Positions 1,091 to 63,975 of a DNA stretch of 64,000 nt are shown in pieces. The notes beneath the pieces are model-generated. The model worked only from the letters and a program-made list of their open reading frames with translations, was not told the origin of the DNA and did not search any database. Numbering within the stretch: position 1 is the stretch's first letter; each line of letters begins with the position of its first letter. Source of the DNA: Azolla caroliniana (taxonomy: Eukaryota; Plantae; Polypodiophyta); NCBI GenBank assembly GCA_043228905.1, contig JBHGNT010000004.1, forward strand, positions 10,602,001 to 10,666,000. The letters run 5' to 3'. The translations under genes and the position numbers were made by a program.

Positions 1091-1614
1091 TTCACCCCTA
1101 CATCACGCTTTCGAAAAGGCGGTCGTAAAGGAGAGGATAATGTCATGACACAGTGACATCAAATACATTGTTGGTGAGGATTGAACCTACAACCTCACAT
1201 CAACAAGATGTCTTGCGCAACCATTTTGACATGACCATACATTTGCATATAATTGTGTAATATTCTATAGTGTATAGTATATTTCAGAATCAGAATATTC
1301 TAGCCGTTAGTATATTCTAGAGATATCGTATGGTATATTCTAGATTAATATATTCTAGAGATATTTCTCGAGTATATTCTAGAGATATTCAATCTTGGAA
1401 CTTGTATAAATACTTGTAACCTTGGTCCCTTTCAAGGGATTCAACACCACTCATTGATATATCAATCTAGTATTCTCGTTTCATGCTATATTGTCTCCTT
1501 CATCTATGTCTTCATGCTCTCCATAACTTCCTAAATGCATAATCTCATCACTCACAGCTTCTAGAGTTCCTAGCCTCGTCACTTTCAGTTCCACGTTCGT
1601 AGCTTTATGGATTG

Positions 1615-10986: not shown

Positions 10987-10992
10987 AAACTG

Positions 10993-11411
10993 TGTTATTC
11001 TCTGACCGGACAAGGCCTAACACAAGGTGTCACGGAGACACTTCACCAAAGGGTGATTACGGCATAGGATTAAGATTCAACGATTACACCGACTTACGTA
11101 GGTTACACGATTAGAATGCTTTGGTTAATTACACGCGTAAGATATAACAGTAATTACAGAACGGAAATCAAGACAGAAGTATAAACATCATAAACTCTAT
11201 TAATTATCCGCTGCGATTACAATGGGGTCCGGGCCTTTAAATAGGTTTCCGGCCCGTAGTACAAAACGGTGCCTATCGCACCTATTCGGGATCCGTCCGG
11301 ATCTGGAACGGCATACCGTTTCCAGTCCGTCCGTCCACACTATGCTCATTTACAACCATATTTAATTAATTCCTTCACTCCGTATTTTGGACTCCTTGCC
11401 GGCCGGTAACA
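10993..11411 (-). repeat. 5' LTR of Gypsy element (419 bp)
   Basis: Direct repeat of 1615-2033; adjacent PBS. Confidence 0.97.
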
Positions 11412-11624
11412 GATTGTAGTCTGTTATCCGTGCTCCGTCGTAGTCCGCGGGTGGTGTGTACGTGACAGCTACTAGCTACTAATTGGTATAGATTTGGATC
11501 GGTACAACTATCCGGATTCATCTTTTCCTTAATAATTAATAACTACTATTTCCATAATATTCATCTGATCCATCTCTTCCCTGTCCACACCTCTCCTCCA
11601 GATTATACTCTAAAGGCCAACAAT

Positions 11625-24833: not shown

Positions 24834-25279
24834 TCAGTCGTCATCTTCATGCTCCTCATTGATAGCTTCGGATGCGACTTCCTCATAGTCCTTCTCGAGC
24901 GCGGCGAGGTCTTCGCGAGCCTCGGAGAACTCACCTTCCTCCATGCCTTCGCCAACGTACCAGTGGACGAATGCGCGCTTGGCGTACATGAGGTCGAACT
25001 TGTGGTCGATTCGGGAGAAGACCTCAGAGACGGCGGTGTTGTTGCTGATCATGCAGATGGCACGCTGGACTTTGGCAAGGTCGGCTCCGGGGACAACCGA
25101 GGGGGGTTGGTAATTGATTCCACACTTGAAGCCAGTTGGGCACCTATATATATATATATATATATATCAACTTATTAGTTAGTATCATGAACCAACAACA
25201 TACATACATACATACATACATACTGATACTGATACTGATACATATATATATAGTGATATACATGTTGTACATACATACA

Positions 25280-25315
<36 letters not shown>

Positions 25316-25946
25316 TATACATACTGATACTGATACTGATACTGATACATAATATATACTGATTGATATACGTACATGTTGTTGGTACATACATAGATGT
25401 ATACATATATATGTATGTGGCATACCAGTCGACGAATTGGATGGTGCGCTTGGTCTTGATGATACCGATGGCTGCATTCACGTCCTTGGGGGTGACGTCG
25501 CCCCTGTACATGAGGCAGCAGGCCATGTATTTGCCGCGCCTGGGGTCGCACTTGGCCATCATGTTGGACGGCTCGAAGACGGAGTTGGTGATCTCGGGCA
25601 CCGAGTGCTGCTCGTGGTACGCCTTCTGCGCCGATATGACGGGCGCGTAGGAGGAGAGCATGAAGTGGATGCGCGGGTACGGCACCAGGTTCGTCTGGAA
25701 CTCCGTCACGTCCACGTTCAGCGCCCCCTCGAAGCGCAGCGACGTGGTGAGCGACGATATGATCTGCGATATCAGCCGGTTCAAGTTGGTGTACGTCGGC
25801 CGCTCGATGTCCAGGGAGCGCCGGCAGATGTCGTAGATCGCCTCGTTGTCCAGCAGCACCGCCACGTCCGTGTGCTCCAGCAGCGAGTGCGTCGACAGCA
25901 CGCTGTTGTACGGCTCCACCACCGCCGTCGACACCTAACCCCATGA

Positions 25947-25977
<31 letters not shown>

Positions 25978-25985
25978 TCATATCT

Positions 25986-26017
<32 letters not shown>

Positions 26018-27479
26018 ATGTACATACATGTACTATCCGTATGTATGTCTTCTATGCCTGTGTATTCATTTCATGCATCAATCTCAGTATGTACATTCTC
26101 TTAGTTTTGTCTCACAAATCCAATCCAATCCAATCCAATCCAATCCAATCCATTCCATCCTACCATCCTACCTACCTGCGGGGATGGATAAATCGTGAAC
26201 CCCAGCTTCGATTTCTTCCCGTAATCCACCGACAGCCGCTCCAGTAGCAGCGATCCTAGCCCAGATCCAGTCCCACCCCCCACCGCATTGAACACCAGGA
26301 ATCCCTGCAGACCCGTACAATTGTCCGACAGCTTCCTCACCCGATCTAGACACACGTCCACGATTTCCTTGCCCACTGCATCCATCATATGAGAATTGCA
26401 GGTATTGAGACAACATTAGAATTGAATGGATTTTCTGCTGCTTTCTTTTACCTGTGTAATGACCCCGGGCAAAGTTGTTTGCGGCATCCTCCTTTCCAGA
26501 GATGAGCTGCTCCGGGTGGAAGAGCTGGCGATAGGTGCCTGTGCGCACCTCATCGATGACTGTGGGCTCTAGGTCGACGAATATGGCGCGTGGCACATGC
26601 TTCCCTGCACCTGTCTCGCTGAAGAACGTGTTGAATGCGTCCGTCGCAACCCCTACCGTCTTGTCACTAAATTCAATACATAAATCCAACACCCAACCCA
26701 CCAAAAAACACCAAAGAAGGAAACAATTTAATTAATTGTGAATAGATTTACACAAGGTAACTTACTGGTCATGACACACCAAATCCTTTATTTTGTATGA
26801 TCAATCAGGTGGAGCTCTTCCTAGCTACTATGAACATGGGGCACATTCCATTCCATAATTATCCAGGAGAAAGAAAATGATGGTGATGCACACATACTGC
26901 GTGAATGACCTGTCATTGCCATGATACATATGTGGTTTCCTGCAGGCAGGAAGGCACCCCAGCCCATTCCCACTTGGGAATTCCAATTGGCATCCCCCTT
27001 AGCTAGCTGATCTTCTTATTCCTAAACTTGAATATTGGTGGCAAATTTTGATGGTTTAAACTAGTGCATTATTTAAAATGAGTCTAGCTTTTCAGAGTTT
27101 AAATCATATGGGCTGTTCTAATCATATTTGATCAATCTTGGTGGCAGCCTCGGAACATGAAAGGTAACTAGATACATACATATAGTCGCAAAATTATGCC
27201 AAGGAGTGGGTAGTGGGAGAAAAAAGTAGCCCCAGTAAATAATATTGATGCGCATATTTATACATTCATTTAAGCTCTCTGAAGAAGACCACACATATTG
27301 TTTACTGCTTGCTAAAATCATTTAAAAAACCCTATATCAGTTACTTATCTTTAATAATAATTCTCTAGATAGAGCTTTTCAAATTATTATGGAATCTGAT
27401 GACTCTGAACGATCTACAGCTACTGGGAGGACTCTTCAACTCTGATGCAATTTATTGTACAACATACATACAAGCATTG

Positions 27480-42950: not shown

Positions 42951-45900
42951 CTGATCTTACTCGTCTCTGTCGATGTCGTACTCCAACATCTTCTTCTTCC
43001 CCTTTTCCTTGCTTGTGAACCGTCTCCTCGGTTCCTCACGTGGGGAGAGCACAACCGAGTCATCATTGCTCGCCGACTCATCATCTTGCTAGTCCTTCCG
43101 ACTCAGTGCTTCATTCGGCCCGCTTAGCCGAAATGGGATCATACTTTCATCTAGAGTGCCGATGTCTTCTTCGTCTTCAACCCGGATCGTTTCAGGCTCA
43201 CTGGCCTCATCCTCCGGAATCGGGTCAGAGTCGGACAACGAAGCCTGTAGAGAGTACCTTGATGCTGACTCATCAAATTTGACATCTCGGCTCACTTGAA
43301 CTTGTTTTGTCTGGGGGTTATAGCACTTATACCCCTTCTGCTCATGAGAGTAGCCGAGTAGTATGCATCTCTCCAACTTTGGGTCCAACTTCCTTCGCTT
43401 CTCATCTGGTACATGCACATAGGCTATGGTACCAAATATCCTAATGTGCCTCAAGTTCGGCTTCCGCCCGAAATACAGCTCGTGTGATGACACCTTATCC
43501 CCAATCCGGTTTTGGATGTAGATGGTCACCTGGACCACTGCAGCCTAGTAAACTTGCGCATGCTCTTCTCCTCTAGCATTGCCCTTGCCGTGTCGACAAT
43601 TGACCAGTTCTTTCTTTTGGCCACACCGTTTTGTTCCGGTGTGTATCTGCAACAAAATTCTCTCTGAATTCCAATTTTTTGCAGATAATCATTGAATTGG
43701 CTAGAAAAATATTCTTTTCCGCCATCTGACCGTAGGCACTTGATCTTCCTTTCCGTTTCCCATTCAAGTGGACTTTGCAAGTTCCGGAAACAGTCGAAAA
43801 CTTCGCTTTTCCTTTCTATTAGGTAGATCCATGTGTGCCGGTTGTGGTCACCGATGAAGGAGACGAAATATCAGCTCCCGCCAAGACAAATGTTTTGAGC
43901 CGGTCCCCATACATCCGAATGTATTAGATTGAGCTTGTTACGGTTCCGGTTTCTTTCGATGGGAAAGGGAAGTTAGTGTTGCTTCCGAGTTGGCAGGCTT
44001 CACAAATTTGGGTTTTCCGGCCACTAAATTTCGGCAATTTGAAAACAACTTGTTTCGATTGCAGATCTTGGAGCCTCTGGTAGTTGAGGTGGCCGATCCG
44101 CTTGCGCCAGAGATCGATGTCTGATTCGATCTTTTGTCCTTTTGCGAACATAGTGGTGCCGCTGTCGTTGGTGTCAAGGTGTCAAGGTGTCAAGACGGAG
44201 AGAGAGAGAGAGAGAGAGAGAGAAAGGTATAGCGCTAAGACAAAGAAAGAGAGAGAATTGAAAGGGAAATATTGTATTATAGAGTAAACTGGATTATAAT
44301 GAGTAGGCAACAGAGTGTTACAAAATGGCATTGAACCGATTTAGGTTGGGATGATTCATAGATCCCTATTTATAAGTAATAGAGAACACTCTAGAATATT
44401 CTAGGTCATCCTAGAATGTAAAGTGATCTAGAAGGTTTCTAGAGTATTCGAGAAGGTTCTAGTGTATGGAACACTCTAGAATATTCTAGGTCATTCTAGA
44501 ATGTAGAGTAATATATACTATTCTTATGATATTAGATTATATATTCTAAAAACTATACATATAAGAATATTAATATAATGGTTAAGGATTTGACATGTGT
44601 ACAACAAGGTCGTGGGTTCAAACCCTTTCGAGGCATGATGTGGGTATCATCATGACACTGTCCCCCTACTTCGACGACACGTCTCACGGGTCGTAGGGTT
44701 TGCATTAGGACCTGGTTTACGAGGATATTGGCGATGAAATGCAGTGACAAGATTTGCGGCAGGTTCCCAAGTTCGATCATAGTAGTCTTGATGTTGTGCT
44801 CGAGAAGCCATACATGATCCCCAACGTGGAACTTTTTTTAGGAGTCTAGGCGATGACGATCCGCAAGCCTCTTGTGTGTAACTTGAGCATCATGCAAATT
44901 GTGGAGAATGGTAGCATGAATTTCTTGGAGGCGACTAAGACGATCCTCAACAACAAGGTTGGTAGGAACATCTGGATGTGCATTTATCGTCCACCGAGGA
45001 TGACAGTCTGTATTTGCGGAAAATGGGGAATATCCTGTAGAAGAATGGGCTGAGTTGTTGGAATCGAATTCAGCCAAGTGCAAAAAATCAACCCAATCAT
45101 CTTGTTGATAAGTGATGAAACAACGATGATATTGCTCCAAAGTCTGGTTGGTATGCTCAGTTTGGGCATTAGTTTCTGGATTATAGCCCGAAGAAAGCTT
45201 AACCGAAATATGGAGAAGTTTGAACATGTGCTTCCAAAACTTTGATATGAATTGTGGACCACGATCACTAATAATATCATCCGACAAACCATGATGCCTA
45301 AATAGCTCCCGCATAACGAGATTGAAAACCTCTTGACTTGTAATAGGGCAAGAAATGTGCCATTTGGTAAGTTGATCAACCACTGTGAGAATTGCATCAA
45401 AACCTTTTGAAACTGGGATATCGGTGAAGTTTGAACATGTGCTTCCAAAACTTTGATATGAATTGTGGACCACGATCACTAATAATATCTTCCGACAAAC
45501 CATGATGCCTAAATAGCTCCCGCATAACGAGATTGAAAACCTCTTGACTTGTAATAGGGCAAGAAATGTGCCATTTGGTAAGTTGATCAACCACTGTGAG
45601 AATTGTAATAAAATCCAAGGATATAGACTTCCAAGGATTTTTCGGAATGGGAAGTGGTTGTAGTAAGCCATAGGATCAGTATCGAGGACTGTTTGATCGA
45701 CAACATATATCACAACTACGAACATACTCTTTGATCGACAACAGAAAACCACCATGCCAATAAAACTGATGATAGTCCTTACGAGGGTTTTTCGACTGCG
45801 AGCAAGAAGCACGATCTGGGACGATATGATCCAAAACATCCTTGGTGAATTCATTAGTGGCCATATGATCTCGAATGGAATCAAGAAGAGTGGAATCTTC

Positions 45901-46540
45901 AAGAGTTGTTATGACATTGACTACCATTAATTGTAGGCGATTAGGACCCAAAAGGATTTGTTTTTTAAGCTCAAATGCAGGTTCCCCTGGACAAAGTTCC
46001 ATATAAGATCGCCAATAAAGAGCATATGTTTTGCCTTGTTGCATCCCAGGGCAATATATGATGACAAAGTCGAAATGAGTCAAAAATTGCCCCCACCGGG
46101 CTTGTCGCCGACTCAAGACTCGAGCATTTTGGAAATATGTCAGGTTCTTATGATTGTTGTAAACAATGATCTGCTGAGAAGAACCTTCTAGAAAATGTCG
46201 CCATTTTTGAAAAGAATTCACAATTGCAAGAAGTTCATTGTCAGGGATCTTGTAGTTGATCTCTACAGCTTCAAACTTTCGGGAATGAAAGGTGACAGGG
46301 TGTAGCTGTCCATCATCTCCAGTCTACGATAGGACACTCCCTAGTGCAAAATCTGATGCATCGGCTTCAAGGATAAAGCGTTTTGTTGGGTCGACATGTG
46401 CTAAGATAGGTGCCGTTGTAAATGCTCGTTTTAAGCTTTCGAATGCCTAAACTGCATTTGAACTCCATATAAATGGCTGATTTTTGTGTGTGAATTGAGT
46501 GAGCGGAAGCACGACCTTGGAATAATCTTTAATAAATTTT

Positions 46541-49500
46541 TGTTCAGAATCAAGCTCAACTTGGTCTAGTGTGTGAACTCACCTTGAGAGTGAATAGACA
46601 CTCCAACGGTCAAGAGTCACCATTATGTCACCACTTGGTATTCTAGCATTTAGTATGAGTCATAAAATCATATTCTATGACAAATAACTTATGAGCTTTC
46701 ACATTCCCCATGCTCCATGAGTCTTGTAGTTAATGAAGAGAGAGGGTGACTATATAAAGCACCCTCCTCCCACCTTGTATAACGTTGAGTCTTTCTCCTT
46801 TCTTAATATACTTTACCTTGCGTATTCTCTGTCTCTCTCACTCTCTCACTCTGTCTCTCTCATAGACACACACAGTTCATACCTATTCCGCTACACAGAA
46901 TCCATCTCTTGATTCTTGACATGGTATCAGAGCGAGGTTGGTAGCTCGATCTAGCCCATTCGCGTGCATTGTGTCCTACGCCGATGACCAAGAACCGGCC
47001 CATCACTATCGTAGCTTCGCTACATAGCTCGCATTCGAAGAGAGAAGAAGAAGAAGAAGAATCGACATAATGAATACTTAAATGGGGAGCACTCTCCCTA
47101 CCGAGAAGTTGGATCGAAACAACTTCGCATCTTGGGAGTACAAGATGCACCAATACCTTGTCGGACAAGGCTATTGGAGCTACATCAAAGGAGAGCACGA
47201 AGAACGACCCCCGGAAGTGGCTCCCGAATACGCGACATGGGAGCAAGCTGCAAGCCGCAAGCCACTTAATGTATTGCTTGGCGGCATGTGTTCACGATCA
47301 CATGCTCGGCTACATTCGCGAAGCCAAGGGGCCGAAGGAGGCATGGGAAAATCTACGAAAGATTTTCGCGGCGAACACAACCGCAAGAAGGCTTCAACTC
47401 CACCAAGAGTTGAACAACATTCAACAAAGGGACATGTCCATCACAACATACACCTTGAAGATCAAGGAGTTTTGCAACTCGCTCGGCTCGATAAGCGTAA
47501 ATATCGATGATGATGAGATGGTGCAAATATGCCTCGGCGGCATCGCACCACGGTTCGGCGCGATGCGAACCGCCATTCTAGCAAGGGAGAAATCTCCCTC
47601 CTTCTTTGAGCTATCAATGCTATTGGTCGAAGAAAACCACGTGCGTACAAGGAGCAATGAGTCGGAAGGTCACATGCTCTACACGCACTCGAACGGAGGA
47701 AGAGGACGCAGACGAGCGAGGGGCCGATTCGGCCAAGGACAAGGCGGACAAGGTCCGACCTACGACAACAACTCCCAATTTTGGCCGCAAAACGGAAGCC
47801 AATGGGGAACCTTCACAAGAAGGGGGAGCTTCCACTCCGGCCCGAGCCGTCAAAACGCAACCGAATGTGGATATTGTGGAAAGCTCAGCCACGACAAAGA
47901 AGAGTGCCGAAAGAAGATGCACGAATTAGCCTCCACAAACTGACAACTTAAGAATTACGCGCACAATTCCGACTACGAAGAGTATAGTGGAATGTACGGG
48001 CACAACTCCTACTACGAAGATCATGGCCAAATGTATGCACACAACTCTGACCGTGGCGGAATGTTCATGATGAAACATATAGCAATCTCTATGTTGGCCT
48101 CTACCTCAACTAGTGCCCTCAATCCGGAGGATGTATGGTTTGTTGACTACGGAGCTTCAAACCATATGACATCTCATAAAGAATGGTTTCTCGAACTTTG
48201 AGAGCCGCAGCGACCCGGTAATGTCGAAACCGGAGATGGCACTACGCACCCGATTCGGCACATCGACAATGTTCCGTTCGGCGAAAGAGGTAAGCAAACA
48301 TACATTAAAAATGTCTTGCATGTTCCCACCATCACGAAGAATTTGGTCTCGGTTGGCCAAATGGTTGAGCAAGGGATGCAAGTACGATTCGACCAAGAAG
48401 GGTGCTTCATCGCAAAAGAGGGTTGAATCATCACACGTGGAAGAAGAGAGGGCTGGATGTTCATTCTCAATTCACACGAGATGAAATCCGCCATGTTCCC
48501 AAAGAGCACGAAAGCCGACTCCAACATAGAGCTATGGCACAAGCGAATCGGCCACATCAATCTCAACAAACTCAAAGCAATGAAATCAAAAGGAGTCGTC
48601 ATCAGACTCTCGACATTCAAAGAGAAGGAGATTGAAGGTGTATGCGAAGCATGCCAATATTATGTGCTCTTCATCGACGACTTCTCCAGGCACACGTAGC
48701 TCTATCTGATGCGGCAAAAGAACGAAGTGTTCGGACACTTCCAAAGGTTTTAAAACGAAGTTGAAAAAGCCACCGGTCGTCATGTACGATGCCTTCAATC
48801 GGATGGCAGCAAGGAGTACTTCTCAGACGATTTCACGGCTCCGAAAGGAAGGAATTCGGCGAGAATTCACTTGCCGATACACTCCGCAACAAAACGGAGT
48901 AACCGATCGCAAAAATCGGCACATCCTCGAAGTAACGCGGGCCATGATGAATGAGAAGCATATGCCCAAGTCATATTGGGCCGAAGTTGCAAATATAGCC
49001 GTCTACCTAATGAACCGATGCACAACATCCGGAGTGCACAAGGTCACTCCGCACGAAAAATACTTCGGAAAGAAGCCGGACTTATCGCACACCCGGATAT
49101 TCGGTGCGATAGCGTACGTGCACATCCCCAACGAGAAGCGTCAAAAGCTTGACCTGAAGTCGGAGAAATGTATCCTCGTAGGATACTCACTAGAGCAAAA
49201 GGGCTACAAGTGCTACAACCCCTCAACTCGAAAATCTCGAGTAAGTCAGGACGTCGTTTTTGACGAATCCACATCCTGGTATGCACCAGAGACAACTTCG
49301 ACTTCGCTCGACCCAGAATCCGTCAAACAAGAGATAGAGGATGAAGATCTCCTTACGCGCATGTTCGAAGAAAGTCCGATCATGACCCAACTGAGCGGAC
49401 CACAGGAGCCTTAGAGTGATCAAAGCACATCACGGCCTAGCCCGAAGATGGACAAAGGCAAGGCGAAAATGTCGGAATACAAAGACGATCACTTCGACGA

Positions 49501-51918
49501 CGATGAGTCGACTGACTCACTCAACAGTGAGTTTCGCGGCTTCGATGTACCAATCGGAGTTAAGAAAGCCCTCATCTCTGCAAATGAAAAGCTTCGTCGC
49601 TCCACCCGTGAAAAGAATCCGGTCAGCCAATTCGGCTACAACGACTACATGGCATATCACTATGCCTTTATGATGAAGGTGGCGATAGTACGCGAGCCGG
49701 AAACATTTTCCGAAGCAGCCAAGGATCCGCGATGGATCGAAGCCATGAACGACGAGATGGAGGGACTACACAAGAACGAGACGTGGGATCTCGTTCCCAC
49801 CTCACCACACAAAAAGGCTATCAGCTGTAGATGGATTTACAAAGTGAAGTACAACGCCGATGGTTCCATTAACTACTACAAAGCGCGACTCGTAGCAAAA
49901 GGCTACGCACAAACACACGGAGTTGACTACGAAGAGACCTTTGCCCCGGTGGCAATGATGACAATAGTACAGACCGTAATTGCGCTTGTCGCGGTGAAAG
50001 GGTGGCACCTCCATCAAATGGACGTCAAGAACGCCTTTCTACAAGGCGAATTAGAAGAGGTGTACATGATACAACCACCCGGTTTCAACTCGAGCACCCA
50101 TCCAAAAGTTGTATGCCAACTCAAGAAGCCACTCTACGGTCTCAAGCAAGCACTGCGTGCTTGGCATTCGAAGATAACGCAATATATTCATCAAATCGGC
50201 TTCTGTATGTCAAAATCGGACAACTCCCTCTACATACGAAGTGATTCTGCAAGTTCGATCGTCATCATCTTATATGTGGATGACCTAGTCAATGGAGGTG
50301 AGCACCTCGTCGAAATCAATAAGGTCAAATCCCTCCTTTCCGACAAGTTCGAGATGACGGACGTGAAGGAGCTCCACTACCTCCTCGGCATCGAGGTAAT
50401 TCGGACTCTGGCCAGAATCATGATCTCTCAACGGCACTACATCCTCAACTTTTTATACAAGTTTGGTATGGCTAAGTGCAAATCCGTGGCAACCCCGCTC
50501 GATCGCAATCTAAAACTAGATGCGAACTCCGGCACCAAAGCGTGTGAGCCGACTCAGTATCGGCAACTCATCGGGAGTCTCATCTACCTCACGATCACTC
50601 GACCCGATCTCAGTTATCCGGTCGGTCTCCTTAGCCAATTCATGCAAGCACCGCATGATACTCACTTGGATTGTGCTAAGCGAGTTCTACGATATGTGAG
50701 CGGCACAATGGATTGCGGCATCCTCTACAAGACCGTGATGCCAATACAACTGGAGGAGTACACAGACGCCGATTGGGCCGGCTACAAAGCCGATAGAAGA
50801 TCAACCTCCGGATTTGTTTTTTCCCTCAGCAACGGAGCAATATCCTGGCACAATAAAAAGCAACCAACTGTCGCTCTTTCGAGCACAAAGGCGGAATACA
50901 GGAGCGCGGCAATGGCCGCATGTGAAGCCGTATGGCTCAAAAGGATACTCAAGGATCTGGGCGTACCCATCAAGGATCTGACTTCCCTTTACTGCGACAA
51001 CATGAGCAGTATCCATTTGGCTCGGAACCCGGTGTTCCGCGCGCGGACAAAGCACATCGAAGTGCACTATCACTTCATCCGAGAGCGCGTTCTAGCTGGT
51101 GATGTCGACCTACAACACATTAGCACAAATCTTCAAACGACCGACATCTTCACTAAAGCCTTAGGAGCCGACAAGCTATGACAATTCATGACTGATCTTG
51201 GATTGACGATCCCTGACCTACCAAGCTTGAGGGGGAGTACTGAAGAAACTACGCAATAACGTGTGGATTCCGCAACTGCGCAATGAAGACACTACGCAAT
51301 AACGTGTGGATTTTGCAACCGTGCAACGAAGCTGCGAAGAGCCGATCTACCGCGCAAAGCCGCGAAGAAAGACGCAAGCCGAAGCACAGACTCCGCAACT
51401 ACGCACAACGCAAGCTGGAGCACGGATTCCGCAACTCCGCATAAATGCGAGTCGACACGAGTCGACGTGGACTCTGGAACGCGAGTCGAAGCGGATTTCG
51501 GATACCGTCTGAAACCGACCCGACTTGAGCTTGAGGGGGCGTGTTGAGAATCAAGCTCAACTTGGTCTAGTGTGTGAACTCACCTTGAGAGTGAATAGAC
51601 AATCCAACGGTCAAGAGTCACCATTATGTCACCACTTTGTATTCTAGCATTTAGTATGAGTCATAGAATCATATTCTATGACACATAACTTATGAGCTTT
51701 CACATTCCCCATGCTCCATGAGTCTTGTAGTTAATGAAGAGAGAGGGTGACTATATAAAGCACCCTCCTCCCACCTTGTATAACGTTGAGTCTTTCTCCT
51801 TTATTAATATACTTTACCTTGCATATTCTCTGTCTCTGTCTCTGTCTTTGTCTCTCTCATAGACACACACAGTTCATACCTATTCCATTACACAGAATCC
51901 ATCTCTTGATTCTTGACA
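46541..51918 (+). mobile_element. Full-length Ty1/Copia element nested in the chromovirus RT/RH junction (LTRs 46541-46921 and 51542-51918)
   Basis: TSD ATTTT, PBS TGGTATCAGAGC, gag-PR-INT-RT-RH, PPT GAGGGGG. Confidence 0.95.
49448..51181 (+). CDS. Copia RT-RNase H portion (577 aa open stretch)
   Basis: [46 protein letters not shown]. Confidence 0.9.
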   Translation: MDKGKAKMSEYKDDHFDDDESTDSLNSEFRGFDVPIGVKKALISANEKLRRSTREKNPVSQFGYNDYMAYHYAFMMKVAIVREPETFSEAAKDPRWIEAMNDEMEGLHKNETWDLVPTSPHKKAISCRWIYKVKYNADGSINYYKARLVAKGYAQTHGVDYEETFAPVAMMTIVQTVIALVAVKGWHLHQMDVKNAFLQGELEEVYMIQPPGFNSSTHPKVVCQLKKPLYGLKQALRAWHSKITQYIHQIGFCMSKSDNSLYIRSDSASSIVIILYVDDLVNGGEHLVEINKVKSLLSDKFEMTDVKELHYLLGIEVIRTLARIMISQRHYILNFLYKFGMAKCKSVATPLDRNLKLDANSGTKACEPTQYRQLIGSLIYLTITRPDLSYPVGLLSQFMQAPHDTHLDCAKRVLRYVSGTMDCGILYKTVMPIQLEEYTDADWAGYKADRRSTSGFVFSLSNGAISWHNKKQPTVALSSTKAEYRSAAMAACEAVWLKRILKDLGVPIKDLTSLYCDNMSSIHLARNPVFRARTKHIEVHYHFIRERVLAGDVDLQHISTNLQTTDIFTKALGADKL

Positions 51919-54565
51919 ATTTTCGATAAAAATTTGCCAACCCGAGAAAACATTGCACATTGCACACTGAAAGGGACGTTTGCCACTCTAAAATTTCTTG
52001 TACCTTCATGGGGTCCATAGCAATACCATCTGATGATACAACATACCCCAAAAATTCCACTTGATTTTGGCCGAAACTACACTTTTCCAATTTTGCGTAG
52101 AGACCATATTCTCGGAGTCGACGCAATACCTGATGACACATGTTCATCATGCTCCTCTTGGGTCCTCGAGTAGATTAAAATATCATCCAGGTAAACTATA
52201 GTGAAGATATCAAGAAAATCTCAAAAAATATCATTTGCCATATGTTCGAAAATTGTAGGTGCATTCGTGAGACTGAATGGCATCACAGTATACTCAAAAT
52301 GTCCATAGAGAGTGCGAAAAGTTGTCTTCCATTCATCCCTTGGGCGAATCTGAACTAGATAATATGCATCGTGAAGGTCCAACTTCGTGAAATATTTTGC
52401 TCCACTGAGACGTTCCAAAAGATTCAGGATTAACGGTAAAGCATATCTATTCCAGATTGTCACTTTGTTTAGCCCTCGATAATCCACGACCAATCGAAGA
52501 GTCGCATTCTTTTTCTTAACGAAGAAGATAGGTGCACCAGCAGGGGATCTAGAATGTCGAATGAATCCGTTTGCCAGATTCTCATCAATATATTCCCGCA
52601 AAGTCTCTAGCTCTATAGAGGACATATTATAAATTCGTCCCCATGGAGGCTCTTTCCCTGGTTGTAAGTCAATAGGGCAGTCGTATGGTCGATGCTCTGG
52701 CAATGTATTGGCCTTCACCTTATCAAAGACATCTGAGAACTCTTTTTATTTCTTTGGTATTTTAATGTTTGCTTCATGTAAAGTGGATGATGGAGTTGCT
52801 ACTATTGCGAAGATGAACATGGCCTCGTCCCCCTTCCTCATGCAACTCTCGTAGAGAGATGGTCGATAACTCAGGGGATCTAGTATCACATGTCGAAGAG
52901 AGGGATGCAAGGTTTGTGCTTTTTTCCTGGGTCTCCTCAATTGTTCTTTTCATCCAATCAATCTTCGGGTTATGGAGTTTAAACAAAGGGAGACCTAGAA
53001 CTATTGGTTGTTCCGGACTGTGAATAATGTGGAAAGAGATTATGCTTGCCAAATCGCCAAGAACTATCGGAATTGGCTCAGACTCCTTGACTATATCTCC
53101 TGATACTATGGGACGACCATCAATGACTCCTACGACTACTAGGCTTGGGAGCTTATTCAAGAGGATGTTTTGTGACAAGGCAAATTCATGATCCATGAAA
53201 CAAGACTTGGCTCCAGAATCTAGGAGGGCAGAGAATAGGACTCGATGACATTTAGATGTGGTAAGCTTGACTTGTGCAGAAAAAACTCTACTCGCGTGAT
53301 TTGATGAAATGGAACCACGACTAGGAACTAACTCTACATAGCTAGGATGGACCAACCAAATGGCTCCTATTTTGGCCGAACTTACTTGTTTAACACATCT
53401 TCTAATTGGCTCAAGACATCGAATCTATTCTCATGGAATGGACTATGAGGCTTACTTATGTTATTAGAAGTAACAATGGAACTCGAAGTACGGTTGTCAT
53501 GGGAACTTACTTGGTATACTTGACATCTAGGTTTATGTGGACAATTTACAACTATATGTCTTGGACTACCACAATACAGGCATAGGCGATGCGTTCGACA
53601 TCGTTGCTTCTCAGCATCTCATAAAGGCCCACAACATTGTGTTGACTCTATTTACATCAGAGTTGGGCCATCCCTTATAATGGGTCTGGAAACTGATGGA
53701 GGTGTTGCGACTACGGAAGTGTAAGTCAATTCTGGTTGGCGGCATAACATTTGTTGTCACTCAGAATGTCGCTCAAATTATCACATCGCACAGCTCGACT
53801 AATGCCCTCAGTAAGAAACTTTAGATCTTCAGGAAAAGTAAGAAGAAGATCCTTGACATCATTACTCATACCTTGACGGAATTGATCCATTAAGGCCGCC
53901 TCATCCCAAGGGATATCGCATGCCAAGCTGACGCGGGACGATCTCCTTGTCGGAGCCTTCGACTCATGTTTATTGTTGTCCTAGTGTTGTCAGTGTCTCC
54001 GAAACCAGCTTGACACTCCTTAACAAATGCCTCGAAATCCTCCAACAATGGTGATTTCTTCTTGAGATGTGGTGCGAACCATGCTAATGTCGTACCGCAT
54101 AGCAAAGTTCCCACTAATCCCACATGAGCAGCGTAGTTGGATACCGATTGGGATCTAGTTGAATAACCAGACGAACTTGATTAAAAAAGCCTCAAAATAA
54201 AGACCTTGTACCATCAAACTTGGCAAGGAGGCTAATCTTTGGTTCTCTAGGGGAGTTTTGAGCCCCCAACGCTTGTTCTCGTAATGATAATATAGTCGCC
54301 TCGAGTTCGTGAACCCATTGTGATAACTCTTCATACTGTTGAGCTTTTTCGGTGCTTACTTGTTGTAGGTCTCAAAGTAGCCCTTGATTTTCATGCTCTA
54401 ATGCCACAAATTTACTCGTGAGCATGTCAAGCTCAGAACCAACACGCATATACTCCTGTTTGCTCACAGACTCCATAGCTTACGAGGGGAGAGGAGAAGG
54501 AAAAAGAGAACGTGTTAGGGTTTGTGGAAGGGGAAGGAATGAGAAAATCGATTCAAACTGTCAAG

Positions 54566-54620
<55 letters not shown>

Positions 54621-56729
54621 ATAGCGCTAAGACAAAGAAAGAGAGACAATTGAAAGGGAAATATTGTATTGTAGAGTAAAATGGATTGCAAGGAGTAGGC
54701 AACAGAGTGTTACAAAATGGCGTTGAACCGACTTAGGTTTGGGATGATTCATAGATACCTATTTATAAGTAATAGAGAACACTCTAGAATATTCTAGGTC
54801 ATCCTAGAATGTAAAGTGATCTAGAAGGTTTCTAGAGTAGTCTAGAAGGTTCTAGTGTATGGAACACTCTAGAATATTCTAGGTCATTCTAGAATGTAGA
54901 GTAATATAGAATACTCTTATGATATTAGATTATATATTCTAAAAACTACACATATAAGAATATTAATACAATGGTTAAAGATTTGACAGGTGTACAACAA
55001 GGTCGTGGGTTCAAACCCTTTCGAGGCATGATGTCAGTGTCATCCTGACACAAGGATGAACATCCTCCCGTCCCTACGCACGCGCACTTATCGGGCCTTC
55101 TTCCTCTATGAAGCACCCAAGGTGCGTGAACTGGACCTGCATCCCCTAGTCGACGATCTGCCCGACTGACACCAGGTTCTTTGTGATTGTCGGAACATGT
55201 AGTACGTTCATCAACTTTCCCTTTTGTTTGATATGGCTTAAAGGGACTTCTTCGACATACACGATCGGGTGAGGAGTGTCGTCTCTGGTTTCGACAACTC
55301 CCGGTTGCTCCGGCTTTTCCAAAAATGAGAACCACCCTTCATGGCTCGTCATGTGGTTAGACGCTTCGGAGTCAACATACCATAGTTCCTCCAATTTGTA
55401 AGTGATCTTCTTCATCGAGTTCACCTTGTGCTTCATCACAAAGGCTGGCCCTTTTTCGGTCTTATCGGTTCCGGATACCTCTGATCCTTCAGCATAGTGC
55501 GAGCTTTGTCGGTTCCCTTGTCCGGCCTTGCCGAATCCAGATTTATCCGAATCGGCACGCTTCTTCTAGCATTCGCTTTCTCGAAGGCCTTTCTTGCCAC
55601 ATTACCAACATTCCGTGTCGGTTTTCCCTTGCCTGTTTCCGGCGCTGCCTTGACTCCCCCTGCTAGTGAGTGGAGGGTCTAGAACAGTTCTCGGCACTAT
55701 CTCTGTGCCCCCGGTTTTGCTTTGGTCGGCCACCTGCATTGTGTGCCGATCCACCTCGTCCTCCACGTCCACGGGGCCGATCCACCTCCGTGTACAACAT
55801 CCGGTTGTCTGATTCAGTGGTCCTGACCCACTCGTGTGTGGTTTTCTTCGACCATGAGCATCGATTGCAGGTCGAAGAAGGACAGTGGTTTCTCTCGGGT
55901 GAGGATAGCGGTTCGGATGGGCCCGTACCTTTGATCTAGACCACTGAGGCAAATTTGCACCATTTTGTCGTCGTCTATCGTGACGTCAATGGACCCTAAT
56001 GCGTCACAAATCTCCTTTATCTTCGTGGTGTAGTCTGAAACTGACATATACTTTTTTCGGATATTGTTCACTTTTTGCCGAAGTTGTAGCTTGTGGGCTA
56101 AGGTACTTGCGGTGAAAATCTTTTTCAGATTTTCCCAGACTTGGTTAGGCGTCTTAGCATCTCTAATGTAGTTGATCATCTGGTCGTGCACAAAGTATGC
56201 AAGGCAATATAGAACTCTGCTTGCCCCTTGTTCGCATGTTGGGAATTCCTTTTGTGACGACTCTGGCGCTATTTCATTCACACCCTCAACATAACTCCAA
56301 TATCCATGTCCAAGCAGATATTGGTGCATCTTGTATGACCAAGATGCATAGTGGTGTCTGTCCTACTTCTCTGTCAGAAGCGAGCTTGCCATACCTATGT
56401 CCATCTTTCGTAGTTTACCAGGTGTTAGGGTTTGTCTTCAGTAATCGCTCGTTGGCTGCGGAGGTTCTCAACCCTCGCGCTTTGATACCATGTCAAAGTT
56501 AATACGCGGAAGCTTTGACAAACCAATTTACCCAGATAGTAACATAAAACAGAGAATGAAGGTTTAATGGAAGCTTAAGAACAGAGAATACACATGAGAG
56601 ACAGAGAGAGCAGAAAGTATAAACTCAATTTAAAATAATAACACTCTGTCCATAGGATGTGCTCAGTGAGCACTCTTTATACAAGTCCACAAGGGACTGA
56701 CAGAAGTATTACGTACTTCAATGCTCATA

Positions 56730-59700
56730 AGAGTGGTTGAAACTAACTATGAGGACGATGACTACCTAGTAGTCTAGAAGCGTAGACCTCTAAACGGCCT
56801 ACCTATACACACATGGGTCCGACTCTCTAATTCGGCTCCCCGATCCCGATCCGGCTCCTGGTTCCGGATACGATGTGGCTCTAGCTTATCCAACCGATCC
56901 GGTGTCGTGAAGATTTTCATCCATAGGGGGAAAACGGGGTGGAATGGGCAAGTCGGTGGTGTGCAACATGTGCACACGTATACTAGGGAATGGTGTATAG
57001 AAATAAGATGGGAAATTTTATCCCACATTGTAAGGTCCCTCCCTCCTTGGGCCATAAAAGGAAGCGAGGGGTCACTTATGAAGGGGTTGCCTATTTTGCG
57101 TATGAAAGGTATACCACTTAGTCTAGAGTTCTTACCGTTTTAGGGTTCTTTATTCATCTTCAGTTAGGGTTTTCTCATAGTCGTTTGGTGCGGCCCACAC
57201 GGCCACCATTGTTGTAATCGTTCGTTTGTTTTAACATAACTTGTTGAGTTTCTTGCCTCCACCAATCTCTCCTTCTATGTCATGGTCTTATTCTTTCCTC
57301 TTCTCCTCTTGAGCTAAGCCTCCATATCATGTCTTATTCTTTCTCCTCTACTCCCTAATCCGAGACCCCCGTGGTCCCGCCCCTTCTACAAGCACGTGCG
57401 TAACAACGCAACATCTTTGGTGAACCCGACCTGAAGGGCGGAAAGGGAGCATGGAGATGGAAGAAGACTTCGACTTCGAGGAGATGATGGCAAAGATCGT
57501 GATGGAAGCCGGACGGAAGATGGCGAAGCGAGATGCGGCTCAACAAGCCGTCGAAAGGGTGGTCGATCGAGTCGGCCGGTTCAATGGGACCGAGGTCCAA
57601 AAATTTTTGGGAGCCTACAAGGCCGAGATGGCGAAAGGGGGTGTGGACGAGGCGATGCGGCTAGAGTATTTTCCTCAAGTGGCGGTCGTATCGGTGCACA
57701 AGGAGGTCAAGGAGCTACGAGAAGCTCATGAGTCGTGGGTGTCCTTTGAGGGAGCCCTTTGGAGGCGTACGGGTACACGGAACCGGAAGGGAGAGATCGA
57801 CCTGAGTTCGATCGGTGGGTGTCGTTGGCGAGGCGTCATCGGAGCGTGATGGAGGCATTCCGAGAGTTTGAGCGCCGTTTCTCGCAACTCTCAGAGCGAG
57901 ATCGGAGATCGGTGGGGGCGGACAAAGTCCTCTTTTTTTTGAAGACAATCCATCAAGAGGAGAGGACGGACATCTTATTCGAGCTTCAAGATGATTATGG
58001 AGCACATGGTCTCACCGAGGAGTGGTCCGAGGTGGAATGGGTGTGCCGGCAACATGATGCGAGGCGGTCGGCCACAACACGGCCCGCTGGCGGCAGAGAA
58101 GAGAGAGCGGCCAGTGAGTAAGCACTACCGCCGGAAGAGAGCTGAATGCAAAATGGTTCGGAGGAGCTCAACCTAGAAGCGCTAATACGGGAGGCATGCG
58201 AGCTTGTGAAGGGGAAAATCGAAGCCGAAGAAGGGCTTATTATGGAGTCAGGCCGGAGGCGATCGGAGGATGCAGAGGAAGAAGCCTCCCTAAGCGTAGA
58301 AGACGGGGCCTATACGGAGGCTAGGAGAGCGTACGACGGCGACATGGGAGAGGGTGCGGAGCAAGCAACCCTCTTGCCTTGCGGTGAAGGGACAGCCATG
58401 GAGGCCGGTAACTACGGATTCGGGACATGGTAGCCCGAAACATCGAGTCGGGAGAAGACAAGCGGCGGTGCCACGACCTTACACACACCGGCCCTAGAGG
58501 CTCCGGCGGACAGCCCGAGTGCCGACGTGAGACCTAGAGCGACGGGCGGCGGCGGCGGCAAGGCGGGCAACCGACACGACGACATGGAAGAGACGGCGGC
58601 AAGCGTAATCGAGGCTTGCGCGATCGGAGGCAGGGTAGCCACGGACAACGACGTTCGGACAGAAGCGGCTACGGACACAACGAGCGGCGGTGCCGGATCC
58701 ATACCCACACCGGTCCTAGAGGCTCCGGCGGTCGGCCCGAGTGCCGGCGTGAGACCTAGAGCGACGGGCGGTGGCGGGCAACCGAGACGACGACGAAGAT
58801 TGTAGCGGACGGAGGCAAGACCCCTCGACACCGGGGCCGGAGACTACGACGGCTGCACTTGAATGTCAACGTAAGACTGGAGAGAAGGGTGGTGGCCATG
58901 AGGAGGCGTGGCCCGGAGCGAACACATACGAAGATGAGGATGCGAGGCCCGGAACGGGCATATACAAGAGGACCGATGGAGAGGTCGGGAGCGGCAAACA
59001 GGAGAGAGTCGGGGGCCGACTCGACCAGAAGACGAAGCGGAAGAAGAGTGAAGTGGGGGCTGGTCCACCGGGCCCAAACCGAAAGAAGCTGGCAAGACCG
59101 GGATTGTTTGATCGACTCCTTACCGGCCGGTTATGGTTACGATGGGAGCCGGTGAGAGTGAGAAGGAGGCTAACCGGGCACGACGAGTACGGATCAGTGA
59201 GAGGTCGAGAGCAAGAGGGACCCTCCCCGCCTATTCTAGAGACTTCGGCAGTTGCGGATCAACATAAGACCGGAGAGACGGCAGGTGGCGGCGAGGAGTC
59301 GGAGACCAGAACGGACGAGGCTACCGGAATGGGTACTCGGTGTGTGAAGACGGACGAGCATTGCCAAGACGGCAAGCCGGAGTCGGAAGGGGCTACGGCA
59401 ACGAAGGACGAAGAGACCGACGCGGAGGTCAGGTCTACGGCGGATGACGCGCGTAATATGAAGTATGCACTACGGCGTAAAACGGAGCATGCTCTACAGC
59501 CACTCGAGGGCCAAGAAACGAGCATGTATTCAGAAGAGCCACAACGAGTGACCGGTGATAGCGGTCCGGTCGAGCCTTTGAGAGGCAAAAGCGCGGCGAG
59601 ATGCCGGGATCGGCGGATGGGCGGCGAGAGCGAAGGATGGTGCACGGAGAACAATGGGGTACATGCCGGGAAGAGAAGATGCGGCGGCTTCCCGGAGGGC

Positions 59701-62670
59701 ATGCAAGGCCAAGCGGGCCAAGAGGGCGCAAGTCGAGGCGAGGTGGTAACGAGAGCCTCGAGGGACACCGACACGGAGGTCGAGATGACGGTACGCTCTA
59801 CGGCAAGATGAGAAAGCACGGCGGGCAAAGGAGAATCAAGGAACGCGGAATGGGGTCGCCTAAGGGCCAAAGAATGAGCGCATATTCGGGGGACAACATC
59901 GGTGCATGGGAAGAGCCGACAGAAGGCAAGCGTGGAGCGGGAAGAGTCGACACACCGAGGTGTTGGGCATGCGGAGACGATAAAACCAAAGGAGTAACAT
60001 ACGCGGCACACAAAGGGCGGAATCCGGAGTGCGATCGGAGAGATCGGGAGTGCATCCGGAGGACATACATGGCGGACCAAGAGGGTGTACCTCGGGGCGA
60101 AGCGGCAACATCGGAGGTTGCAGAGGACACCGAGGACGAGAGCACTGGCACGGATGTTGGGGAAGCAACGTACCTTTTCGAAAGGGTACGCAGAGCAGAG
60201 CGGAGTGCGAGACGTGCGATGTGGCCGCGTAAGGGCCGAGCGACGAGCACGAGGATGATCGACGACGAAGTTCAGCGCGTGATAGTGCCGAGTCAAGGAA
60301 GCCACCGAGGCAAGACAAGCGTGGACGAAGAGCACACGGTGCAATATCCAGCAAACAGTCAGGAAGAACGAGGATTCGGTCCAAGATCGCGTGCGGAAAA
60401 CGAAGGAAGACAAAGAGAGGTGTGCGAAGACTGGGTTTGGCGGACCGGGCGGAGACAGTGGTTCGGTGAACTCCATCGAGTATGGTGGATCGGATGGAGG
60501 CGATGGTTCGAGAGCATACGATGAATATGGCAGACCGGGAGGCTACAGTGGTCCATGTGGGACGGATGGGCTTGCTCGAAGTGGAAGACGATGTCGGGCA
60601 AAGCTGACAAAGACGCTAAGGACTCGGTTGACCGCCATGGCCAAGAATCTCACCTCTTTCCCCTTCTTGGCACATACCGGTGGATGTGCGGTTTGGTGGG
60701 GGCGGATGTCGTGAAGATTTTCGTCCATAGGGGGAAAACGGGGTGGAATGGGCAAGTTGGTGGTGTGCAACATGTGCACACGTATACTAGGGAATGGTGT
60801 ATAGAAATAAGATGGGAAATTTTATCCCACATTGTAAGGTCCCTCCCTCCTTGGGCTATAAAAGGAAGCGAGGGGTCACTTATGAAGGGGTTGCCTATTT
60901 TGCGTATGAAAGGTATACCACTTAGTCTAGAGTTCTTACCATTTTAGGGTTCCTTATTCATCTTCAGTTAGGGTTTTCTCATAGTCGTTTGGTGCGGCCT
61001 ACACGGCCACCATTGTTGTAATCATTCGTTCGTTTTAACATAACTTGTTGAGTTTCTTGCCTCCGCCGATCTCTCCTTCTATGTCATGGTCTTATTCTTT
61101 CCTCTTCTCCTCTTGAGCTAAGCCTCCATATCATGTCTTATTCTTTCTCCTCTACTCCCTAATCCGAGACCCCCGTGGTCCCGCCCCTTCTACACGCATG
61201 TGCGTAACAATGCGACACCGGATCCGGTTGATCTTGTTCGCTCAACAAATTTCTAGTTCTCTGAATCCCAGAGCCTGTAAATTCCCCATCGGTTCCATAA
61301 CCGAGAAATGTACACTTCAGTGCATGGGGTGCCAACTTGGTCCTTTTGTCCCTGGGGATGAATGCATAGGCTTCACATCTGAATATACAGAATCTGTCAT
61401 AGGTCAATTGTTTGCCTGACCATAGTGCATGTTGCACTTCGAGCTTGATTGCTTTCGATGGCGAGAGATTTATCAGGTAGATAGCTGTCTACAATGCTTC
61501 GGCCCGGAATTCCAGCTTTTGTTCCGTTCCGCCACTCCATTCTGCATGGGTGTGTAAGGAACGCTCTTTTGGTGCCAGATCCAAGTACAGTTTGAAGGCT
61601 CGGGGGGTACTGTATTCTCCTCCAATGTCAGATCGGAGTGTCTTCACTCGGTATCCTGATAGGTTCTCCACTTTAACTGTCCACCGAGTGAAGAACTCGA
61701 ACGCTTCGTCTTTCAACCTAATCGAGTAGGCTCAAACCTTCCGTGTACAATCATCTACAAATGTGATGAAGTACCGAGAAACTCCAAATGACCTTTCAGG
61801 CATCAGTCCACATATATCTGTGTGGAACAATTCAAAGGGTTGTTGTACCATCTCATATTGGAGAGAGTGCGAACTTCAGGTTTGTTTCCCGTAACGACAA
61901 TGCTCACAAAAGTCCGTCTTTGTGTATAGTTTCGGGATGTAATCGATTGCCATCATCCAGTCCAATCCGGCTTGAGACATATGGCCGAGTCGACCATGCC
62001 ATAAGTTCAAGTCCCACGATTCAGCTATGTTCACTACCCCTTATGGATTGATCACCATCAATGGGTACAAGTTATTGTACTTGTATCTGTTCTCAATTTT
62101 TAGATTTCCTTGGCTGATTGTCCATAATGACTCACTAAGAATCGTTCTGTACCCATCTTCAACTAACATGCCGATGGAGACCAAACTCCTTTTCAGCACG
62201 GGTATGTACCGGACTTGGTCGACTGGTGACCAATTTTTCTACAATGGGTGCAAAAATCACTTGATCGACTATTCCTCGACCTTTGACCGTTGTCGGTCTC
62301 CCCTCTTTCTTGGTCGACTGGTGTTCCAACCGGTTCTTTCGACTTGTTCTCTTGATCGGCTGAATCGCTCGATCAACTTGGTCAAGTGGTGGGCTTCTGC
62401 CGACTCATCGATGGTAAGTCCTAAGGACTTTCGTTGAATGTCCTCGATGAGGACTTGTCCGATTGTTTCATCTAGATTTAGATTCGGACAACTATTGGCA
62501 AAGGTCGTGCAGAATACCTCCCAACTCGCCGGCAACCTCGAGATGAGGGCAAGGGCTTTGACTTCTTCTTTGAAGTTAATCCCTTGGGAGGAGAGTTCAG
62601 ATAACACCCAGTTGAAGGTGTTAATGTGGGAGGTTGTTGCATCCGTCTCTCTCATCTTCATGTTGAATAG
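56730..62670 (-). mobile_element. Decayed Copia (Tnt1/Tork-like) gag-integrase fragment, interrupted by the 56903-61217 element and cut by the LTR at 62671
   Basis: LFNMKMRE..HINTFN..ALALISRLPASWE, VKTLRSDIGGEY, RTKLAPHALKCTFLGYG. Confidence 0.8.
56903..61217 (+). mobile_element. Non-autonomous gag-only LTR element (LTRs 56903-57413 and 60707-61217, 511 bp)
   Basis: TGTCG..CGACA ends, 4-bp TSD CCGG, PBS TGGTGAACCCGACCTGA (57418-57434, tRNA-Trp-like), frameshifted gag-like 57451-58121, PPT GGTGGGGGCGGA. No PR, RT or INT motifs seen. Confidence 0.9.
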
Positions 62671-63975
62671 TGTTGGGAATATGTCCCTCAAGTGGGAGGA
62701 GCCGACTGTTCGGGCCTAGAAGAGACAACAGTCGAAGACAAGGAGGAGCCGACTGTTCGGGTCGAGTACCAAGAGTGAAAGAGTCAATAGTAGAGAGTCG
62801 GTTGATTAATTATCGATTATTATTATAGTTATAATAATAATAATAGTAACGATGTGTAGTAGGGGCTACACCTGTAAATAGCCCATATGATGTATGAGTA
62901 TAAATACATCTAGGGAAAAACATAGAGATAGAGTTGAACAGAATAAGGTATTAGCCTCTATTATCCGAGAGTGAGAGAAAAGAACGAGAGAGAGGTGCCA
63001 TAGTTGTGTTCGTAATAGTAAACGCCAAGAGCCTTGTGAGGTTGATACACTCCATAGTCAAGAGAGTGTTATCGTGAAGATTTCCGACTATAGTGTGAAA
63101 CTAGGGTGGAATAGGCCAAGTCGGTGGTGTGCAACGTGTGCACATGTATAGTAGGAAACGACGTATAGAATAAAGGGGAGTATTTGTCCCACATTGTAAA
63201 GCCCTCCCCTCCTTGGTCTATAAAAGGAGGGAGGGGTCCCTTGTTGAGGGGTTGCCCATTTTGAGTCATGGGGGTATACCATTTTTGTCGAGGGTCTTTT
63301 TGTTAAGAGTTTTCTAGGGTTAGTAACATCCTGTTCTTCTTCTTCTCCTCCTTCTTGAGAAGTCGAGGCGTTGCAGCCATGGCGGCAAAGCTGTTAGGGC
63401 TAACTTCTTTTCTTCTGAGCGTACCCGGCTCGAAGCCGGGGTTGTATCTTTCCCCTTTGTAATATATACACTTATATCTGTTTGTGCGTATTGGTGTTTC
63501 TGATGGTGTCAGGAGCATAGACCCTTTCGTTTCCTATGCATAAGAGTCGACGTCGCACGCATGCCCTTTTCTCTCTCTCTCTCTCATGTTCGGTTGCCTC
63601 CGGGTCATGTTCGGAGTCAGTTTTCTTCGCATCCCTTTTCTCTCTCTCTCTCTCATGTTCGGTTGCCTCCGGGTCATGTCCGGAGTCAGTTTTCTTCGCA
63701 TCCCTTTTCTCCCTCGTCCGAGACCCCCATGGTCTCGCTCCTTCTACATGCACGCGCGTAATAACGCGACAGTGTGGTAATATTCTCCCTTGTACATCCA
63801 CTGTATAGTGAAGACGTCTTCTTCCGTGGTTTTTTCTCCCGTTTTGGGGTTTCCACGTAAATCTATGTGCACTGTACTTTCTATTCATCTTGTTGTTTTT
63901 CTATTTTGAGTTGTGTATTTTCAGCATATCTATTGTGGATTGACGATCTGATTCACATCAAACTAGTATCGGAGC
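62671..63975 (+). mobile_element. 5' LTR (62671-63960, interrupted) and degenerate tRNA-Met PBS of a Copia element running off the window
   Basis: Starts TGTTGGGAATATGTCCCTC (same family end as 12401 and 40851). Contains GGGTTTCCACGTAAATC. PBS TAGTATCGGAGC at 63964. Confidence 0.75.
63070..63771 (+). mobile_element. Solo LTR related to the 56903 family, with a ~70-bp internal tandem duplication
   Basis: TATCGTGAAGATTT...ACGCGACA with 4-bp TSD GTGT. Shares GGTGGTGTGCAAC.TGTGCAC and TCCCACATTGTAA blocks with the 56903 LTR. Confidence 0.85.

Follow-up and report, generated by a model that had tools for sequence, protein, structure and literature searches.

A putative tRNA-type Pol III promoter module near the outer edge of LTRs in a clade of self-priming chromodomain retroelements

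Why would LTRs of plant retroelements carry, close to their outer ends and facing away from the element, two motifs laid out like the internal promoter of a tRNA gene? The question is raised by a 64,000-nt stretch of land-plant DNA, hereafter the window, which is dense in nested LTR elements. An earlier note on this stretch described an A box-like and a B box motif in three LTRs of two diverged families and proposed that a tRNA-derived module may be kept there, as an insulator against silencing or as an antisense Pol III unit. Below, we describe the module and its carriers, their relatives in metagenomes and the explanations that may account for its retention.

The module and its carriers

Both boxes lie where the earlier note had placed them, with a start-to-start distance of 44 nt in all three LTRs (Table 1). 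Likewise, the module is antisense to the element in each LTR, with 33, 33 and 37 nt separating the B box from the LTR 5' end. The pattern GGTTCRANYC[CT] occurs three times in the 64 kb, once per module-bearing LTR. Taken alone, the strict B box is weak evidence, since two matches are found in the window versus 0.55 expected and 11 of 100 shuffles reach two. The combined A-gap-B pattern, itself derived from these copies, also matches twice and is found in none of 100 shuffles. Seven other LTR stretches in the window are without the full module; the one loose match among them is missing the AGGT block.

Table 1. Positions of the module and of the elements carrying it in the window
Feature	Position	Strand	Remark
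E1 3' LTR, A box	44571..44581	+	tRNA positions 8-19; antisense to E1
E1 3' LTR, AGGTC block	44607..44611	+	tRNA positions 44-48
E1 3' LTR, B box	44615..44624	+	tRNA positions 52-61
E1 3' LTR, AT-rich patch upstream of A box	44524..44563	+	putative TFIIIB/TBP platform
E1 5' LTR, module	54964..55017	+	A 54964-54974, AGGTC 55000-55004, B 55008-55017
E0 LTR, module	1178..1231	-	A 1231-1221, AGGTT 1195-1191, B 1187-1178
E1, Ty3/gypsy element	44188-55050	-	LTR pair and flanking TSD
E1 3' LTR	44188..44657	-	TG...CA
E1 5' LTR	54559..55050	-	
E1 TSD	44183-44187 and 55051-55055		CAAGG
E1 polypurine tract	44658..44667	-	
E1 primer-binding site	54545..54556	-	self-priming, complementary to own R start
E1 3' LTR, R start/self-primer	44331..44342	-	33 nt after TATA box 44374-44367
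E1 5' LTR, R start	54734-54723	-	TATA 54767-54760
E1 broken pol	44653..53424	-	protease, RT, RNase H, integrase, chromodomain remnant
Copia element	~46542-51918		splits E1 pol
E0 LTR, first part	1141..1614	+	resumes 11417-11467 beyond nested Tat-like element
Tat-like element	1615-11411		inside E0 LTR; TSD GATTG

The two LTRs of E1 are 94.8% identical across 463 nt. The window copy has lost most of its chromodomain, and its integrase is 81% identical to that of P0001, an intact Pol with a chromodomain. Close relatives have a chromodomain (PF00385) with visible F/Y-W-Y aromatic-cage residues and best matches to HP1; intact Pol proteins of relatives exceed 1100 aa, and the elements are ~5 kb long and encode gag-pol. 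In this clade, the pol frame reads through the polypurine tract and stops in the first bases of the 3' LTR (window 44653-44667; 1141). The attribution of the LTRs to chromoviruses, made in the earlier note, is supported for E1 and not supported for E0, since region 1-1140 upstream of the E0 LTR has no pol or chromodomain similarity. The E0 LTR has a PPT-LTR junction and a transcription-start motif common to the module clade, and E0 may be a non-autonomous derivative. A 48-bp tandem array with an open frame and no Pfam match lies upstream of its polypurine tract (828-1115). The Tat-like element nested in E0 is young, with LTRs 99.8% identical, and contains an extra frame of 924 codons (2230-5004) without a Pfam match.

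The E0 and E1 LTR families are both high-copy in several public sequencing runs, and the contig differences listed for the two window LTR families (40 of 108 and 40 of 101) spare the invariant bases of the boxes. In the one confirmed RNA run, two contigs map to E0 and none to the module; such contigs show neither strand nor level.

The elements of this clade prime reverse transcription from their own RNA. The 12-nt primer-binding site pairs with the start of the element's own R with 0-2 mismatches in all 12 LTR-PBS junctions (those of the window and of loci L008, L009, L012, L026, L035-L038, L041, L058 and L064, four of them near-identical), and PBS and R start covary between families. The R start follows a TATA box by 32-33 nt and sits in a small hairpin motif that is kept across families. 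The elements keep a Pol II promoter with its own start. Between PBS and module there are 4-5 mismatches. Since the elements prime from their own RNA, the module is not the primer, and this role was rejected.

Self-priming is also reported for Tcn1 elements (PMC6317226). From its PBS and the aromatic-cage chromodomain of its relatives, E1 is predicted to be a Tcn1-type element, the comparison having been made against unlabelled tree rows. Like the Tcn1 chromovirus clade of the Tf1/Sushi group, the elements described here self-prime; with this clade they also share the aromatic-cage chromodomain, an affinity to fungal-type elements as nearest relatives and hosts among non-seed plants (PMC6317226, PMC2864245, PMC3350952). 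Judged from the Tcn1-type element, the plant from which the window derives is probably a non-seed plant. What would set the present elements apart is the tRNA-type Pol III module, of which the passages covered in these papers make no mention for Tcn1 LTRs.

Conservation within the clade

Relatives of E1 were fetched by protein alignment of the integrase end and chromodomain, which carries no LTR information. Of the 600 candidates listed, 116 were confirmed, and the best 80 of these gave the 78 metagenome loci obtained. All 78 close loci stem from one block of assemblies; searches of viral contigs yielded 2, 0 and 6 loci. The LTR start could be located in 70 loci, 65 of which have at least 150 nt. 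Together with the three window LTRs, these make up 68 sequences, which fall into 28 families at 75% single linkage with a median pairwise identity of 0.59. An antisense B box (at most one mismatch) is present within the first 80 nt of 57 of the 68 LTRs and of 22 of the 28 family representatives, versus 0/63 in the control interval of nt 121-200 and a mean of 2.07 (maximum 5) in shuffles. Exact matches are all antisense (37 versus 0 on the sense strand), and the 16 matches found on the sense strand are explained by the near-palindromic nature of the B box. The distance from G18 to G53 is 35 or 36 in 61/66 anchored copies, out of a searched range of 25-49, and equals that in two real tRNA genes of locus L003 after allowing for their extra D-loop base. 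The exact A core ARYGG is found at this spacing in 49/66 copies. The B box itself lies at varying distances from the LTR end (11-63 nt).

Because anchoring on the boxes inflates their conservation, the test was repeated with a motif-blind alignment of the 28 families. Identity reached 0.70 in the B box, 0.78 in AGGTC and 0.63 in the A core (44577-44581 in E1), versus 0.33 in the spacer, 0.27 between B box and LTR end, and 0.41 and 0.21 in upstream U3. The 5' half of the A box is weakly conserved (0.37). With 0.63-0.78 against 0.21-0.41, the boxes are far more conserved than the surrounding U3, as the proposal of a retained module had implied. The AGGTC block was not used as an alignment anchor, and G46 and T47 are present in 61/61 numbered copies. 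The CpG site at positions 56-57 reads CG in 31, CA in 24, TG in 5 and TA in 1 of 61 related copies; thus, loss of C56 is rare and the change of G57 to A common, matching the prediction from the B-box consensus. Upstream of the A box, AT content across 22 families is 0.86 (-1 to -20) and 0.79 (-21 to -40), versus ~0.6 elsewhere. Selection very probably acts on the module. Intact modules are found in 36/42 high-coverage versus 15/23 low-coverage contigs, a difference that is not significant (p 0.066), and 14 of the 68 copies fail the intact test, including those of the high-coverage loci L005, L007, L057 and L073.

In a quick tree, 23 rows of the module clade form one side of a branch with an SH-aLRT of 94-95, nested among unlabelled fungal-type elements. 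No module was found at the LTR start in 33 scanned distant loci, many of them without a full LTR start (33 of 44 fetched, with 11 short or contig-end matches excluded), and since many are incomplete, the boundary of the clade is only loosely set. A single capture at the base of the module clade would be the simplest reading of this distribution. Module-like sequences also occur at L043 (~185), L066 (~621), L048 (~306) and L061 (~1818). Two of them follow LTR-like starts with TGTCAT and have fuller tRNA-like A boxes, and these sequences possibly represent other families nearer to the ancestral state.

Although the motifs are those of a tRNA gene, the module does not hold up as a tRNA. ARAGORN finds no tRNA gene in the window, Rfam yields no tRNA match on the window or in two 201-nt local scans at E<=10, and 44563-44636 does not fold into a cloverleaf (z +0.86). 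The tRNA search over 60 relative loci returned two ordinary genes and none on a module; both belong to L003, where tRNA-Asn and tRNA-Thr (552-627 and 831-906) lie ~150 nt from a truncated integrase fragment. Across 22 families, none of the four stems pairs better than with permuted partners (p 0.22 for the acceptor stem, 0.19 for D, 0.38 for the anticodon and 0.61 for the T stem), whereas the two L003 genes, used as a control, pair fully in the same test. A helix shared across the clade was sought at all positions and none was found (p 0.44 and 0.83), and both a cloverleaf and a clade-wide helix were consequently rejected. The ACATC/GATGT hairpin pointed out earlier is present in the LTR at 1141, but pairing of the anticodon stem is not kept across families. 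The hallmarks of SINEs are missing as well: no candidate TSD of at least 8 nt surrounds the module in any of the 22 families, and there is no A tail. The module occupies one position in LTRs of the clade, consistent with a fixed component rather than independent SINE insertions. With neither cloverleaf stems nor TSDs and tails, it is thus neither a tRNA nor a set of separate SINE insertions. The higher conservation of the boxes relative to U3 and the lack of SINE hallmarks support, at the sequence level, a retained type 2 promoter of Pol III, and this prediction, with A and B boxes in order at tRNA spacing, is well supported.

What the module may be kept for

What the families have in common is the A core, positions 44-47, the B box, the 35/36 spacing and the AT-rich sequence upstream of the A box. 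They share neither a tRNA fold nor the sequence of the spacer, and the module lies at no fixed distance from the LTR end. Positions 44-47 are not part of the textbook B box. In yeast, however, the TFIIIC subunit tau138 makes a base contact at +47, on the upstream side of that box; G45A lowers TFIIIC binding 5-fold, and transcription responds to bases +44 to +47. TFIIIC can bind without the A box, which TFIIIB requires, and the commonest gap between the boxes is 32 bp (PMC11724288). Counted in the same way, the gap in the module is 32-33. C56 is the position most important for binding (PMC11811891). Judged from its bases, the module probably binds TFIIIC. As the A box is kept together with the AT-rich patch and is needed for TFIIIB, a full TFIIIC-TFIIIB assembly would be expected rather than a lone ETC site, if yeast can be extrapolated to plants. 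TFIIIC accepts variable spacing between the A and B boxes (PMC12409998) and, therefore, binding does not fully explain the tight 35/36 spacing.

The explanation that we favour, with a probability of roughly 0.45, is that the module is an outward-facing type 2 promoter acting as DNA, that is, as a barrier or open-chromatin platform. On this view, an ancestral element would once have captured a tRNA gene or the head of a SINE. TFIIIC would read the B box and positions 44-47. Positioned by the A box, TFIIIB would sit on the AT-rich patch at ~80-160 nt into the LTR, which is roughly 100-250 nt upstream of where Pol II starts. Pol III would be directed away from the Pol II unit, and the module of the 5' LTR has flanking DNA on one side and the Pol II promoter of the element on the other. 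The most speculative step is the benefit, which may be a shield from silencing in the heterochromatin that an HP1-like chromodomain is expected to target. Chromodomains of this type are reported to direct integration into heterochromatin (PMC3350952, PMC7466625), and tDNA and ETC barriers depend on TFIIIC and stop the spread of heterochromatin (PMC12409998). The combination of the two favours a barrier or open-chromatin platform, and by analogy with yeast and mammals the module may act as a barrier. A bolder version, which we put forward tentatively and hold to be less probable than the platform itself, is that the clade turned a tRNA gene into a portable TFIIIC/TFIIIB barrier, carried along the outer edge of all its LTRs, so that each copy can still be transcribed within silent chromatin and thousands of boundaries of the tDNA type are spread through the host genome.

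The strongest competitor, though somewhat unlikely, is an active Pol III gene of which the short antisense RNA is selected, as a self-limiting RNA or decoy against U3 or as a source of small RNA. The promoter is complete, including the A box and the AT-rich sequence upstream, and units producing miRNA by Pol III are known from the U3 of foamy viruses (PMC3993851). A T4 run falls within tRNA positions 62-83 in 10/22 families versus 3.7 expected (p 0.001, the families being related), and five of the ten runs are at 73-74, the position of a terminator, which speaks for discrete transcripts in some families of the clade. However, the other 12 of the 22 families have no T4 in this interval, and the first T4 in the window copies is at positions 270, 266 and 123. 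Moreover, the RNA sequence between the boxes is not conserved and, as noted, shows no conserved helix at any position. In 9/22 families, that of E1 among them, the spacer and the B box form an inverted repeat with at least 8 of 15 pairs, yet the test was post hoc (p 0.08 with Watson-Crick pairs, 0.013 with G-U). The T4 runs and the partial inverted repeat therefore keep antisense RNA in contention. The degenerate inverted copy of the B box in the spacer attains up to 13 of 15 pairs and is not significant after a scan of all positions; it was seen at window 44585-44626 and in L006, L011, L014, L016, L025, L032, L042, L046, L076 and L078.

We consider it improbable that the module works in the sense genomic RNA, by pairing with the D, variable and T loops of a host tRNA or by forming a hairpin, and so aids strand transfer or packaging. 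Such a role would resemble HIV-1 U3 and the bipartite primer site of Ty3, and the antisense orientation and fixed, tRNA-colinear spacing would suit pairing with a tRNA. But the elements prime themselves, their PBS matching the own R start far better than the module in every junction. Changes that wobble pairing would tolerate are absent (G46 61/61, G53 60/61, T54 60/61), and A58, the methylation of which prevents pairing in tRNA, is retained in 60/61. Folding of the sense strand reaches z <= -2 in 8/22 families, and a control U3 window folds equally (9/19). Slightly less probable still is a part in integration or nuclear positioning, either as a landing pad for elements that target Pol III genes or as a TFIIIC tether. 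The two tRNA genes beside an integrase fragment in L003 would fit a landing pad; the nested insertions of the window, by contrast, are far from the modules (the Tat-like element at 1615, the copia element within pol), a perfect B box lies within 400 nt in only 1/17 3' flanks, and for pad and tether alike the benefit to the carrier is unclear. The least probable explanation is that the module is a neutral leftover from an early capture of a tRNA or SINE, or that SINEs were inserted independently: tRNA-like pieces are present in many LTRs (PMC10886601), but conservation in the boxes is two to three times that in the intervening spacer and the module holds one position in one clade without TSD or tail, which contradicts both.

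Known systems and further features of the window

The closest parallel to the module are the Helenus TRIMs, or TRIMp3 (Kojima 2024, PMC10886601), with LTR sequence that is likewise tRNA-derived and has conserved A and B boxes. As in Helenus, the tRNA-like sequence is present in both LTRs of E1, there is no functional tRNA and the tRNA-derived sequence is not the primer. Unlike Helenus elements, which are non-coding, 311-1263 bp long and tRNA-primed (PMC10886601), those described here are ~5 kb long, encode gag-pol and prime themselves. For the Helenus promoter, a role in transcribing the element in place of a Pol II promoter has been proposed (PMC10886601), whereas the module points outward and the TATA box and Pol II start are kept. 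E1 differs from Helenus in that it encodes pol domains and in that its self-priming PBS is not complementary to a tRNA. Many Repbase LTRs contain tRNA-like pieces according to PMC10886601, the analysis there being limited to TRIMs, and autonomous elements are expected by the same source to use Pol II. Cassandra also keeps a Pol III promoter in plant LTRs; in contrast to the module, this promoter is derived from 5S, is carried by a non-autonomous element and transcribes it (PMC10886601). The tDNA and ETC barriers and the boundaries formed by B2 SINEs (PMC12409998, PMC8136502) share with the favoured platform the use of TFIIIC sites that block heterochromatin and, for B2, the mobility of the boundary, which is linked to CTCF (PMC8136502). 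They are host genes, lone B boxes or SINEs, whereas the module is fixed in the promoter region of an autonomous element. Foamy viruses, like E1, have A/B-box units in the U3 of an autonomous retroelement; their hairpin products and terminators are backed by experiments (PMC3993851), while in the module clade the product is not conserved and an early T4 run is confined to part of the families.

The earlier note knew of no description of such a module in plant chromoviruses. This can be maintained in part: LTRs derived from tRNA with A and B boxes are known from Helenus TRIMs (PMC10886601), and no conserved outward module was found for autonomous plant chromoviruses in the portion of the literature that was covered. 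It is an open question how expression is maintained in elements directed at heterochromatin, and a platform of Pol III factors beside a Pol II promoter would be a concrete answer that can be mutated. LTRs of the clade would offer natural test cases of TFIIIC insulation in plants, and its families can be used like an extended mutagenesis experiment, indicating independently of tRNA structure which bases TFIIIC would read, namely the B box and positions 44-47. High-copy LTRs with the module could also add TFIIIC sites and false tRNA-like calls to genomes of non-seed plants.

Several further features were noted. The window contains another LTR pair (97%) at 56903-61217 and a related longer LTR at 63070-63960, with no Pfam match in two frames tested. 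A WRKY-like exon with an internal repeat array of 105-108 nt and a tubulin gene are found at 18474-19802 and 25144-27400; the WRKY-like exon narrows the host down no further than Streptophyta. Behind the same module, the U3 enhancer region is of two types, containing either arrays of TTCTAGAA, which we take to be heat-shock-element-like, or arrays of a CCA(A/C)(G/A)TGG box; these were found at window 44380-44510 and 1290-1400 and in L004, L008, L012 and L049.
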